Program-made: the position numbers
Assembly: GCF_000026545.1 (NCBI RefSeq)
Contig: NC_011601.1
DNA: 64,000 nucleotides
Direction: 5' to 3' (one strand)
Source: Escherichia coli O127:H6 str. E2348/69
GTDB lineage: Bacteria; Pseudomonadota; Gammaproteobacteria; Enterobacterales; Enterobacteriaceae
Shown here: piece after piece, positions 3,001 to 9,000 of the stretch
Layout of the letters: every line of letters begins with the position of its first letter
How positions within the stretch are numbered: position 1 is the first letter of the stretch

Positions 3001-6000
3001 GGCGGTGGAGATTATGGACACCGCGTTTATGAACTCTATCAGCAAATGGAAAAAGTGGGACGAAATGCTTGCGTCACCGTGGTTCACCGTTTACCCAGAC
3101 GTAGGCAACCTCAGCGCCTGGGGCAATGATGTTCCCGCCGAACTGAAACTGGGTATCGACCGTATCGCCGCCATCCATCTGAAAGACACTCAACCCGTTA
3201 CCGAACATAGCCCCGGACAGTTCCGCGATGTGCCGTTTGGCGAAGGCTGTGTCGATTTTGTTGGCATCTTCAAAACGCTGCATGAGCTGAACTATCGCGG
3301 ATCATTTCTGATTGAAATGTGGACCGAAAAAGCCAAAGAGCCGGTGCTGGAGATTATTCAGGCGCGGCGCTGGATTGAAGCGCGTATGCAGGAGGCCGGA
3401 TTTATATGTTAGAGCAACTGAAAGCTGACGTGCTGGCGGCAAACCTGGCGCTTCCCGTTCATCATCTGGTGACGTTCACCTGGGGCAATGTCAGCGCGAT
3501 GGACGAAACGCGGCAATGGATGGTGATTAAGCCTTCCGGCGTTGAGTATGAGGTAATGACCGCCGACGATATGGTGGTGGTTGAGATAGCCAGCGGCAAG
3601 GTGGTGGAAGGCAGCAAAAAGCCCTCTTCCGACACGCCAACGCATCTGGCGCTTTACCGTCGCTTTGCGGAGATTGGCGGCATAGTGCATACCCACTCGC
3701 GCCACGCCACCATCTGGTCGCAGGCCGGACTTGATCTCCCCGCCTGGGGCACTACTCACGCCGATTATTTTTACGGAGCCATCCCCTGCACGCGCCTGAT
3801 GACCGCAGAAGAGATCAACGGCGAGTATGAATACCAGACCGGCGAAGTGATCATTAAAACCTTCGAAGAGCGTGGGTTGAACCCGGCACAAATCCCAGCG
3901 GTACTGGTGCATTCTCACGGCCCGTTCGCCTGGGGAAAAAATGCCGCCGATGCGGTGCATAACGCCGTGGTACTGGAAGAGTGCGCCTATATGGGTCTGT
4001 TCTCGCGCCAGCTTGCGCCACAGCGCCCTGCGATGCAAAACGAACTGCTGGATAAGCACTACCTGCGTAAGCATGGGGCCAATGCCTATTACGGGCAGTA
4101 GCCATACCTGATAGTGCCCGGCAATACACGCCGGGCAGCCTTTCACATCAGAACAGCCCCAACGGTTTATCCGAGTAGCTCACCAGCAGGCACTTGGTTT
4201 GCTGGTAATGCTCAAGCATCATTTTGTGGGTTTCGCGGCCAATGCCTGATTGTTTGTAGCCGCCAAACGCCGCATGTGCCGGGTAAGCGTGATAACAGTT
4301 GGTCCACACGCGCCCGGCCTGAATGCCGCGCCCCATCTTATAGGCCAGATTACCGTTGCGGCTCCAGACGCCCGCGCCCAGACCATATTGCGTATCGTTC
4401 GCCAGCTCCAGCGCTTCTTCCATCGTTTTGAAGGTGGTTACCGCCAGCACCGGGCCAAAAATCTCCTCCTGGAACACGCGCATATTGTTCTGACCAAACA
4501 GAATCGTCGGTTCGAGGTAGTAGCCGTCTTTCAGTTCGCCTTCCAGCAGCTTGCGTCGCCCGCCGGTGAGCACATCAGCGCCCTCTTTTTTACCGATATC
4601 AATGTAGTTGAGGATGGTTTCCAGTTGCCCGTGAGAAACCTGCGCGCCCATTTGCGTCACGCTGTCGAGCGGGTTACCGCTGCGAATGCTTTCGACACGG
4701 CGGATAGCGCGTTCCATAAAGCGTTCGTAGATAGACTCCTGCACTAAAGCACGGCTTGGACAGGTGCAAACTTCGCCCTGGTTAAAGGCAAACAGTGCAA
4801 AGCCTTCCAGCGCTTTATCGAAAAAGGCATCTTCTTCATCCATCACATCAGCAAAGAAGATATTTGGCGATTTGCCGCCCAGCTCCAGCGTCACCGGAAT
4901 AATGTTTTGCGTGGCGTATTGCATAATTTGTTGGCCCACTTCCGTTGAGCCAGTAAACGCCACTTTGGCGATGCGTTTCGAGGTCGCCAGATATTCGCCA
5001 ATTTCCCCACCTGCGCCATTGACCACGTTCACCACCCCTGGCGGCAGTAAATCACCGACGATTTCCATTAGCAGCAGTACAGAAAGCGGAGTAAGACGTG
5101 CGGGTTTCAGCACCACACAGTTGCCCGCCGCCAGAGCGGGAGCCATTTTCCAGCTCGCCATCAGCAGCGGGAAGTTCCACGGGATAATCTGCCCCACCAC
5201 GCCTAACGGCTCATGGAAATGATAGGCCACGGTTTCGCTATCAATTTCACTGATCCCACCTTCCTGCGCCCGAATACACGAGGCAAAATAGCGAAAATGA
5301 TCAATCGCCAGCGGCACGTCGGCAGCACTGGTTTCGCGAATGGGTTTACCGTTATCCCAGGTTTCTGCCGTCGCTAAAAGTTCAAGGTTTTGTTCCATTC
5401 GATCGGCAATCTTAAACAGAATCGCCGCACGATCCTGCACCGAGGTGTGCGCCCATTTATCTTTCACTTTGTGCGCAGCATCCAGCGCCAGATCGATGTC
5501 TCGTTTGCCCGAAGACGCCACTTCGCACAGTAGCTGCCCGGTCACCGGCGTCAGGTTCTGGTAATACTCGCCGTCGGCAGGGGCTACCCATTCGCCGCCA
5601 ATAAAGTTGTCGTAGCGGGCTTTTAATTTGAGGGGGAAACCATACTCGCCGGGCTTAATCTGTGCTGAAGGGGGATTATTGGTCATGATCGTCTCCTTGC
5701 GGTGTGAGGTATAACAAGGGTAGACGTGACTGGCGAAATCTTCGCCAGTCGGTGACAGCTTTACGACGGCTATCACGAATTTACGGGCAAGGGTTACAGC
5801 GGATAATGCGCGAAGTACACGGCTTGCTGGTCATTAATTTTCTTCTCTTGCGCAAACCCTTCTTTAACAATTGTCCGTAAATCAGCTCGAGCCGTATTAT
5901 CAGAGACGCCCAAGCTCGCGCTAATTTCAGCAACTGTGTACTCTTTCCCCGGATTGGCGAGCATCACATTCAGGAGCGTTACCTGGCGCGGATTCAGGCG

Positions 6001-9000
6001 TTTAAGCACACCAGAGCTAAACAGCACACTATCGAGTTTTGCGCTTCGTTGTGTAATTTCATCGATATGCTGCTGCCAGTTTTGCAGAGCACGTTTAATG
6101 ACACCCGCCTGATATTCAAGGAAATAAGTCAGATCCATACCATCTGATTCAGTGTACTGGTAGCTGGCGGCATATTTTACTGGCGCTGCATGAAGCAAAC
6201 GGCTGATGGAAATATATTTAAAAACATCGTAGCCCGATTTCAGCATATACCAGTAAAACAGCGCCCGACTGGTGCGCCCGTTGCCATCCCGAAACGGATG
6301 TTCATGGGCCAGCATAAAATGCAGAATGCAGGCACGGACCAACGGATGAATATACCCTTCATGGCTGTTTAACCACTGGCAAACTTTTTCCAGCCGTTCC
6401 GGTAACAATGCCGCAGCGGGCGGTTGATGCACTATATTGCCATCATAGTCGGCGATCACAACATCATCTGTTTCACGAAATTCTCCCGGACGATATTTCG
6501 CGTCATTGATTCCACCCATACCAATGGCATGTAACTGGCGAATAAGCGCAGGTGTCAGCGGTTCTGCGAGTAAGTGCGGAATTTCCGCCATCAGCCGGGC
6601 ATTTCCCGCAATCATATGCTCGTCTTCAGTGCGTGGCGACCGCCCTGTTTCCAGCATTTTTCTCGCCACCAGCGTTGTAGTATTCGCACCTTCCAGCTGG
6701 GAGCTGGTGATCGGCTCTTCCAGGCGTAACTGGCTTAACTCGGCTCCGGCCCCGCGTAACCGTTCAGTCTGATCTTTCAGCGCCAGCGCGGTAGCACGTT
6801 TGTCGACAAGCTCGCACGCTTCTGCAATCACCGGGGTAATGTTGAATCCGGCCTGTTCACCCGCTTCATTGCAATAATTAATTCGTTGGATCGCCGCGTT
6901 GCGCGCCAGACGGGTAAGCGTCCACGCCACATCGACGTTTTCTCCTTTTTTGATGCGGTACTGCAACTCATCAAAAGGCAGATAACGTCCTTTTTCATCG
7001 GTAACCCGGTTAAAGCGCAGGTGGGCCAGGAGTTCCTCACCCGATAAGTGTGATAAAGGAATAAGTCCGGGAGGTGATTTGATAGCCATGTGCTTATCTC
7101 AAAAAAGCGCAATATTGAGATAGTGTATAGCAGGAAAGAGAAACTATCTCAAAAAAAGCAAGTTTTGAGATAGTTGAAAAAGCGGCTGACAACTCGCCAG
7201 CCGTTGTGGAAATGATGATTACATCGCTGCGCGATAAATCGCCACAATTTCTTCGTGAGTTGCCTGGATCGGGTTAGTAAAGCCGCAGGCATCTTTCAGG
7301 GCATTAGTCGCCAGAACCGCGAAATCTTCTTCTTTCACGTTCAGGTCGCGTAGGCCTGCCGGGATATCCACTTTCTTCGCCAGTTCACGGATGGCGTTAA
7401 TGCAGGCTTCAGCACCTTCCGCGTCGTTTTTACCTGTCACGTTCACGCCCATTGCAGCGGCACAATCACGCAGACGTGCAGCGGCGACTTTGCTGTTGAA
7501 TACCTGAACATGCGGCAGCAAAACGGCGTTACATACACCGTGTGGCAGGTTGTAGAAACCGCCCAGCTGGTGCGCCATCGCATGAACATAACCCAGAGAA
7601 GCATTATTGAACGCCATACCGGCGAGGAACTGGGCATAAGCCATTGCTTCACGCGCTTTCGCATTACTGCCATCTTCAACGGCTAACGGCAGGTTTTCGG
7701 CAATCATGGTCACGGCTTTCAGTGCACAAGCGTCAGTGATCGGCGTGGCGGCAATAGAAACATACGCTTCGATAGCGTGCGTTAAGGCATCCATACCCGT
7801 TGCGGCGGTCAGTGACTTCGGCATACCAATCATCAGAGAGGAGTCATTGACAGAAAGCAGCGGAGTTACATGTTTATCCACAATCGCCATTTTGATGTGA
7901 CGCGCTTCGTCAGTGATGATGCAGAAACGGGTCATTTCAGAGGCCGTACCCGCCGTGGTGTTGATGGCGATCATCGGCAGCTGCGGTTTTGCAGAGCGGT
8001 CAACGCCTTCATAATCGCGGATGTCACCGCCGTTGGCTGCAACCAGCGCAATACCTTTTGCGCAGTCGTGTGGAGAACCACCGCCTAAAGAAATCACGCT
8101 ATCGCAATTATTTTCTTTAAGTAATTTCAAACCTGCAGCGACGTTTTCCGTGGTGGGGTTAGGTTGGGTGCCATCATAAATAACGCTAAAAATATTGCGT
8201 TCTTCCAGTGCTTTTTGCACATCACCCGCCATACCCAATTTCGTTAATATGTTGTCGGTGACAATTAAGGTACGGGTAAATCCATAATCTGCCATCATAT
8301 TCATTGCATCATTCAATGAATCAGCACCAATAACATTCACGGAAGGAATAAAAAAGGTTGAAGCTGCCATAACACACTCCTGAAAGTGTAAAAAAGGGCG
8401 GGCAGCTTACTGAGGATTTTCATTTGAAAATATGATCAGTATTATTGATTATCAAAATTAATCCAATAAAAAGCACATTGTATTCATTAAACAATGTGCT
8501 TTTTTAAAATCATAAGAATTTTGTATTAATTTATTTTAAAAATTAATTAATCATTTCCTTATTTTTCCGGAAATAATAATGCGTCGCGCAATAAATGATC
8601 ATTTCCACGACGCCGCGTAAAGCCAATGCGGTCAAAATATTCCAGAATCTGAATTGCCAGCTTGCGGCCTACGCCTAAGCGATCGCGGAAATCCGCCGCG
8701 CAGGTTGAACCACATTCCTGATCGAGATCGCGGATCATATTGGCAAATTCGACAATCCGATCGTTACGGTAATAACGATCTTTAACGATCGCGGTAATTA
8801 TCCCCTGCTGCGCCGCCTGGCGTAGAGTCAGGCGCATTGCCTGCTCGTCGGTTCCCGTCTCTTTTGCCAGATCACGCACCCACCACGGTTCGTCACCAAA
8901 CAGCGGCTCTGCTTTTTGCCAGATGGCCTGCTGCTCTGCACTGAAGCCCGCTTTGTGATCCGGCAGATGCAGCCAGCCGTGATGACTGAGGATGTCGCCG

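Follow-up and report, generated by a model that had tools for sequence, protein, structure and literature searches.

A putative auto-inhibited and auto-repressed Fic AMPylase between aldB and yiaY, apparently ancestral in Escherichia and deleted from K-12

We analyzed a stretch of 64,000 nucleotides from Escherichia coli O127:H6 str. E2348/69 (contig NC_011601.1; hereafter the window), in which a gene for a Fic family protein (RefSeq WP_000985736.1), here called fic, lies between aldB (4148-5686) and yiaY (7219-8370). The wider neighbourhood contains selB/selA and the yiaMNO-lyxK-sgb genes, and the sequence from 5400 to 7500 is 100% identical to NZ_CP059840.2. A preliminary description of this DNA had reported a minus-strand open reading frame (ORF) of 431 codons with a Fic motif, an inhibitory motif and a helix-turn-helix (HTH)-like tail, and had taken it for a strain-specific acquisition. 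We find the reading frame exactly as described (Table 1). It was also right that K-12 has no gene at this position, since in MG1655 only a 164-bp spacer separates aldB from yiaY, and that no integrase, insertion sequence (IS) or partner ORF adjoins the gene. In the fic-aldB and fic-yiaY spacers there is no independent ORF of at least 20 amino acids. Taken together, the results given below make it likely that fic encodes an auto-inhibited, auto-repressed AMPylase of the SoFic type that is ancestral in Escherichia, its most likely role being SoFic-type abortive-infection defence or growth control.

The Fic core is recognized by a profile search (PF02661, residues 177-281, E = 1.7e-19). The active-site motif reported earlier, HPFRDGNGRTSR, is present, though one residue further on than had been counted (264-275, not 263-274), while the upstream match to the inhibitory motif, SSQLEG, was correctly placed at residues 129-134 with E133 as the inhibitory glutamate. 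SSQLEG closes a predicted helix (124-132), and its distance to H264 is 131 residues, compared with 125 in SoFic. In 74 homologues, with identities down to 30%, the residues S129, E133, G134, H264, F266, D268-R272 and R275 are invariant. A helix of the form [S/T]xxxE[G/N] thus precedes the Fic core in one and the same polypeptide, as in class II of the classification of Engel et al. 2012 (summarized in PMC3667792 and PMC12249575). By homology to E73 of SoFic, E133 would reach the ATP gamma-phosphate site or the second arginine of the motif. A search for a separate antitoxin gene of the class I kind was negative, and the segment that distinguishes this locus from K-12 holds only fic and its operators.

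For the structure we used an AlphaFold2 (AF2) model built from the alignment of 74 sequences (predicted local distance difference test, pLDDT, 91.5; predicted template modelling score, pTM, 0.86); a model from the single sequence (pLDDT 40) was discarded. The C-terminal HTH gives a weak Pfam match on the single sequence (HTH_DeoR, E = 0.003). The same domain is found in 15 of 37 homologues (E ≤ 0.001), SoFic-like_C is also found in homologues, and in the model the C-terminus folds as a winged HTH (wHTH) with helices at 367-378, 386-393 and 397-409 and strands at 413-417 and 423-427. The HTH-like tail of the preliminary description is therefore borne out by the homologue family, by the model and by full-length matches to SoFic-type proteins. 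Its proposal of a putative AMPylating enzyme holds as well: judged from the sequence, the protein appears catalytically competent, with an intramolecular inhibitory helix and a probable DNA-binding C-terminus.

Two features had been overlooked, namely a pair of operator palindromes, to which we return below, and a close match to the SoFic defence-system profile of PADLOC (PDLC03963). Residues 96-428 align with positions 30-351 of the 361 in this profile (89% of its length, E = 1.2e-43), and only marginal matches are obtained with the NCBIfam models for VbhT and Doc. The nearest solved structures by sequence (E-values from 1e-12 to 1e-6) are FICD, a Desulfovibrio Fic, a Bordetella Fic, CccR (7XUX), CbFic2 (8CIL) and SoFic. 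In a Foldseek search against the PDB, Fic-wHTH proteins (CbFic2, SoFic, Mycobacterium marinum Fic and CccR; 15-21% identity) rank at the top and FICD comes next; the matches include 3ZEC, 3EQX, 8CIL and 7XUX. The AFDB50 set contains many “Fic family proteins” of 430-460 amino acids that match with template modelling (TM) scores of 0.8-0.95. Against the SoFic equivalog of NCBIfam (NF046030) the protein scores 40.2 bits with a cut-off of 550, and it is therefore a member of the broad SoFic-like family and not a SoFic orthologue. On sequence grounds we assign it to the class II Fic-wHTH proteins of the SoFic/CccR/CbFic2 kind, as a distant paralogous subfamily in which SoFic orthology is excluded by the equivalog score. 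In a phage collection we found no close homologue, the best match having 36% identity over 70% of the protein.

The region preceding the inhibitory helix forms a conserved domain of its own. Its residues Y36, W56 and R63 are invariant in the same 74 homologues, and a profile search with this domain retrieves 1092 clusters at 50% identity, in which it is always N-terminal. Full-length proteins carrying it have 425-530 amino acids, and many of the short matches are probably fragments at contig ends. SoFic, EcSofic and CccR lack the domain; their catalytic histidines lie at positions 198, 194 and 192, respectively.

The 129-bp spacer that runs from the stop codon of yiaY to the start codon of fic holds the yiaY terminator and two palindromes, which we call O2 (distal) and O1 (proximal). 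O2 begins 50 bp from O1. We read a fic promoter by eye and infer that TGcTATACA is an extended -10 element on the fic strand, 17 nt past TTGAGA, with O1 starting right after it. The promoter-side arm of O2 includes the predicted -35 element, and the ATG-side arm of O1 (GAGA) probably doubles as the ribosome-binding site. The palindrome occurs in two exact copies in the window (0 expected), and no further operator-like site was found there even when two mismatches were allowed. A scan of positions 5500-7400 against Rfam gave zero matches; the palindromes are therefore no known RNA element. O2 also scores as terminator-like on the minus strand. We considered but rejected termination as its main function: a terminator belonging to yiaY already lies upstream of it, and the O2 arms match both O1 and the operators of distant homologues.

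Table 1. Features of the fic locus (positions in the window) and of its product (residues, marked aa)
Feature	Position	Strand	Details
fic-family gene	5794..7089	minus	ATG start, 431 aa
Segment missing from K-12 MG1655	5800..7167		1368 bp; all of fic but the final 6 nt, plus O1, the promoter and most of O2; 1-nt junction ambiguity
Putative operator O1 (proximal)	7095..7122		TATCTCAA-N12-TTGAGATA, 28 bp; between predicted -10 and ATG, 5 nt from ATG
Predicted sigma-70 fic promoter	7124..7152	minus	-35 TTGAGA 7147-7152, 17-nt spacer, TG 7131-7132, -10 TATACA 7124-7129
Putative operator O2 (distal)	7142..7175		AACTATCTCAAAA-N8-TTTTGAGATAGTT; core TATCTCAA-N12-TTGAGATA at 7145-7172, 28 bp
yiaY intrinsic terminator	7183..7203	minus	9-bp stem, then T run; kept in K-12; separates yiaY from the fic promoter
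N-terminal domain	aa 1-~95		conserved; ~1-85 a small alpha/beta domain in the AF2 model
Helices aligning with the N-terminal part of the SoFic profile	aa ~100-122
Inhibitory helix	aa 124-134		SSQLEG, E133; predicted helix 124-132
Fic core	aa 177-281		H264 PFRDGNGR272 TSR275
Long connecting helix	aa 321-359		AF2 model
Winged helix	aa 360-431		recognition helix 397-409 (NTARADLRTIVKE)

The palindromes are retained in relatives of the gene. In E. albertii both sets of arms are conserved, while the O2 spacer and the sequence between the operators differ. In Salmonella (70% identical protein, carried by an integrative and conjugative element, ICE) and in Pseudescherichia (76% identical, at another chromosomal site), CTATCTCAA-N12-TTGAGATAG is found at -82 and at -33; the spacers are unrelated, and between the two sites lies a -10 element (TATACT in Salmonella, TATAAC in Pseudescherichia). 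Among 17 loci with a defined start, 15 have CTCAA-N12-TTGAG upstream of the ATG, at a distance of 22-32 nt, and 8 carry it a second time about 50 bp further upstream. The operator-bearing loci include those of proteins with about 40% identity in Marinomonas, Glaciecola, Pseudomonas and metagenome-assembled genomes. In more distant homologues the half-site shifts in step with the residues that open the recognition helix: xNTA is paired with (T/C)CTCAA, Y(A/G)TAR with TATCAA, YDTAR with TACCAA, and xQTAR with (G/A/C)CTAA(T). The palindromes are therefore very probably auto-operators, and nothing argues more strongly for their recognition by the wHTH than this co-variation. The centres of the two half-sites are 20 bp apart, which would correspond to about 68 Å, near the 70 Å between the DNA-binding helices of the CccR dimer.

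We note some variation among these sites. The 42%-identical homologue of Pseudomonas syringae (locus L094, 7001-9614) has the half-site TTTCAA, not TCTCAA, in both of its operators; it adjoins an opposite-strand gene for an iron-containing alcohol dehydrogenase (382 amino acids, yiaY family), probably by coincidence. The Klebsiella homologue (loci L091/L093) keeps only the proximal operator, which reads TATCTCAA-N12-TTGAGATG at -33.

Could the protein be essentially a transcription factor, its Fic domain being vestigial or serving to sense a ligand, with no protein substrate? The operators are indeed the best-supported functional feature, and in the window only the promoter of fic itself carries them. 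We regard this explanation as very improbable, because every catalytic and inhibitory residue is invariant in the 74 homologues, which would not be expected of a vestigial enzyme, and because all characterized relatives are active AMPylases.

We surveyed the aldB-yiaY locus in 5426 complete E. coli genomes and found three allelic states. The gene is present in 1572 genomes (29%), including O157:H7 EDL933, ST95 and O6:K2:H1, and in the three further E. coli genomes that were translated (EDL933, O6:K2:H1 and E105) it is intact, differing at 3-8 amino acids. About 550 genomes have a 200-bp spacer, the long scar, which consists of a complete palindrome, ACTCTCTCAA-N12-TTGAGAGAGT, followed by TTATCTC/TGTAA (the slash marks the junction). 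The remaining genomes, including K-12 MG1655, have the short scar, in which the 164-bp spacer reads AACTATCTC/TGTAA. In both empty alleles a fragment of an operator arm is joined to TGTAA, the five bases with which the fic ORF ends, with 1 nt of microhomology at the junction; both are therefore deletion scars. The bounds given in the preliminary description (5690-7218) are accordingly too wide, as the true difference from K-12 spans only 1368 bp.

The aldB side of this arrangement is also seen outside E. coli. In E. albertii a 95%-identical protein adjoins aldB; the contig ends within O2, so that the yiaY side is out of view. Between E2348/69 and E. albertii the synonymous divergence (dS) of fic is 0.32, on par with that of aldB (0.36), and the ratio of nonsynonymous to synonymous divergence (dN/dS) of fic is 0.07. 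The GC content across fic (0.46-0.56) is similar to that of its neighbours. A shared locus, an aldB-like dS, a low dN/dS and operator-bearing scars together lead us to an ancestral gene that has been under selection and was lost in some lineages. As far as these comparisons go, the fic cassette is ancestral at aldB-yiaY and was deleted from K-12. In evolutionary terms, operators and gene would have been in place before the split of E. coli and E. albertii, under purifying selection ever since, with deletion in the lineages that include K-12.

The strain-specific island of the preliminary description does not survive these comparisons. Such an island, acquired recently and encoding a toxin or virulence effector of enteropathogenic E. 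coli (EPEC), would agree with the lack of the gene in K-12 and with the mobility of its relatives in other genera. It is largely refuted by the 1572 carriers of diverse pathotypes, by the shared locus and concordant dS in E. albertii, and by empty sites that are operator-bearing deletion scars. A search of the locus for the marks of horizontal transfer was likewise negative, as integrase, IS, tRNA and attachment (att) flanks are absent and the composition is typical of the host.

Several observations concern the scars and the fic-aldB side. In the long-scar palindrome (locus L082, E. coli E700025, 788-987; about 550 genomes) the arms differ symmetrically from those of O2 (TCTCTCAA...TTGAGAGA versus TATCTCAA...TTGAGATA), and its spacer resembles that of E. 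albertii O2. Its persistence may be due to chance, to a role as a hairpin behind the yiaY terminator, or to origin from an older fic allele. An imperfect inverted repeat of 34 nt (5766-5799/5862-5895, 71% complementary) has a left arm that stops exactly at the left deletion junction (5799/5800); it may reflect chance or a secondary structure that favours deletion. In one Logan assembly, a 21.9-kb contig encodes a 503 amino acid protein (P0098) in which Fic residues 1-167 are joined in frame to AldB at the common tripeptide “LMA”, either a further natural deletion allele or an assembly chimera; two similar proteins (P0007 and P0080) combine the N-terminal part of Fic with unrelated C-termini. 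At 5728-5750, some 40-65 nt ahead of the aldB start codon, two perfectly complementary 10-nt arms flank a loop of 3 nt (GACTGGCGAA atc TTCGCCAGTC). This inverted repeat, which lacks a T run, is conserved in K-12 and may help to regulate the aldB promoter. Since there is no terminator between fic and aldB, transcription of fic could run through into aldB. On the other side of yiaY, the yiaY-selB intergenic region (8250-8550) is markedly AT-rich, with a GC content of 0.30-0.34 versus about 0.53 in its flanks.

The genomic contexts of homologues bear on function. In Klebsiella the homologue (48% identical; loci L091/L093, 7001-8362) directly follows the DUF927 primase gene in an integrative satellite of the P4 type, which also carries an integrase, an AlpA-type HTH_17 gene and Bro-N. 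The Photorhabdus homologue adjoins ParE/Phd and HicAB modules in a toxin-antitoxin islet, the Salmonella homologue is cargo of the ICE mentioned above, and homologues with 40-60% identity occur on plasmids. These contexts support a defence- or addiction-type lifestyle for the family. Upstream of the ICE-borne homologue in Salmonella enterica (locus L083, 1-5633) we also observe a pair of genes for an AAA ATPase and an S8 peptidase, together with an autotransporter; the ATPase-protease pair could be further cargo of the defence type.

The same enzyme and autorepressor might instead serve in housekeeping, where reversible AMPylation and deAMPylation of elongation factor Tu (EF-Tu) or another factor would adjust translation or growth, a role already suggested for Shewanella SoFic. 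As a dimer, SoFic AMPylates switch I of EF-Tu; its deAMPylase activity is constitutive, it binds its own promoter (bioRxiv 10.64898/2026.07.09.737422), and it has been discussed as a growth regulator. Vertical inheritance of the gene in Escherichia, its strong purifying selection and its position among core genes point the same way. On the other hand, about 70% of complete E. coli genomes have lost fic at no obvious cost, homologues travel as cargo of a satellite, an ICE and plasmids, and the match to the PADLOC defence profile is strong. We give this explanation a minor share of the probability, though more than the other alternatives.

How might a defence or growth-control protein of this kind work? 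We propose that the protein, whose H264-R275 loop and E133 helix are intact by sequence and model, would be an AMP transferase that E133 holds in a state of low activity, possibly a deAMPylating one. A dimer would bind the two palindromes, one over the -35 element and the other between the -10 element and the ATG, and thereby repress its own transcription and keep the enzyme scarce; the comparative evidence strongly supports this step. Release of the brake, for example by phage infection or stress, might then lead to AMPylation of an essential nucleotide-binding protein of the cell and to growth arrest, by analogy with characterized relatives, in which the targets are EF-Tu (SoFic) and FtsZ (CccR). 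A role as an effector directed at the host is unlikely, as the gene occurs in all pathotypes.

Several points weigh against a SoFic-type AMPylase acting in defence or growth control. The activity, target, DNA binding and phage phenotype of the protein are all inferred. Its identity is 17-21% to every characterized relative and at most 21% to any solved one, and its equivalog score is far below the cut-off. The E. coli gene has core metabolic genes on both sides and lies outside any defence island, and other copies of its homologues are solitary chromosomal genes. A sigma-70 consensus scanner called no fic promoter, because the weak -10 element, TATACA, has no final T. Finally, a host-protein AMPylation signal was absent for a c4409 mutant of strain CFT073 (PMC9558369); c4409 is probably this gene, and if so the result bears against a host-directed role and leaves a role within bacteria untouched.

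We are also tempted by a broader and quite tentative idea. The long Fic-wHTH proteins (about 430-460 amino acids, about 1,000 clusters at 50% identity) might make up a subfamily that is both distinct and widespread; their N-terminal domain (GRYLxxDE...W...R) might be a sensor or target-recognition module that releases both the E133 brake and the operator brake on a cue such as phage infection, and a code at position 398 (N/A/G/D/Q with CTCAA/ATCAA/ACCAA/CTAAT) might predict operators and regulons from bacteria to archaea.

If a SoFic-type AMPylase at this locus is the correct interpretation, about 29% of complete E. coli genomes, among them EPEC E2348/69, enterohaemorrhagic E. coli (EHEC) O157:H7 and lineages of extraintestinal pathogenic E. 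coli (ExPEC), carry an uncharacterized AMPylating enzyme that is absent from K-12. As K-12 has no copy of this gene, it is a clean heterologous host for studies of toxicity, target and phage defence. The operators and the correlation between recognition helix and half-site would provide concrete predictions in a family of which only three members have been shown to bind DNA. Surveys with the SoFic profile of PADLOC probably count the fic gene at this core locus as a defence system, and whether they are justified in doing so is testable.

We now compare fic with the systems that it most resembles. SoFic (Shewanella oneidensis SO_4266; PDB 3EQX/3ZCN/3ZEC) has the same order of N-terminal inhibitory helix, Fic core and C-terminal wHTH, with TM scores of 0.69-0.73 normalized to SoFic; the identity is 17-18%, and fic has an extra N-terminal domain of about 95 amino acids. 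SoFic-type proteins are reported to be toxic AMPylases and to protect against phages, the latter according to a citation in PMC12249575. Like the “SoFic” single-gene anti-phage system (PADLOC PDLC03963; EcSofic of E. coli H397), fic has no obligatory partner gene. EcSofic has a downstream antitoxin of 47 amino acids, AS1 (PMC12249575), whereas no AS1-like small ORF was found downstream at the fic locus.

In class I modules of the FicT/FicA type (VbhT/VbhA; K-12 fic/yhfG), which have the Fic catalytic motif and glutamate-based inhibition in common with the gene studied here, the inhibitory helix is encoded apart, by a small antitoxin gene; the present protein contains its own, and there is no partner ORF. 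CbFic2 (Coxiella burnetii CBU_0822; PDB 8CIL) is the best Foldseek match (E = 2.7e-12, 21% identity). This bifunctional enzyme can AMPylate and deAMPylate, and binding of its C-terminal HTH to DNA switches it between the two activities. CbFic2 is also a host-directed effector that modifies histone H3, in contrast to fic, for which there is no sign of secretion or of a host target.

A parallel in regulation is CccR (Yersinia pseudotuberculosis YPK_0951; PDB 7XUX), which shares the Fic and HTH architecture. CccR is toxic by AMPylation, its substrate being Thr8 of FtsZ, and as a dimer it represses its own promoter through inverted repeats at -35/-10 (PMC9755527). At fic, too, palindromic putative operators overlap the predicted promoter of the gene itself. 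The sites are built differently: CccR has a single one, AGATAATCAT-N26-ATGATAATCT, while fic has two, with 8-bp arms and an N12 spacer. One may ask whether fic also encodes an exported dual-function protein, for example a substrate of a type VI secretion system (T6SS), that poisons competitors but serves kin cells as a transcription factor. The shared architecture and logic of autorepression would fit. The secreted CccR belongs to a T6SS effector cluster, however, and T6SS or effector-immunity genes are absent near fic; the identity to CccR is only 17-18%, the operator geometry differs, and CccR has no N-terminal extension. We therefore hold this explanation to be improbable, if slightly less so than a vestigial enzyme. 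Compared with these systems, the architecture, the principle of inhibition and the autoregulation of fic are already known, and no major concept is changed. What appears to set it apart from the characterized members, judged from its sequence, are a conserved N-terminal domain and a clearly defined promoter with two operators.

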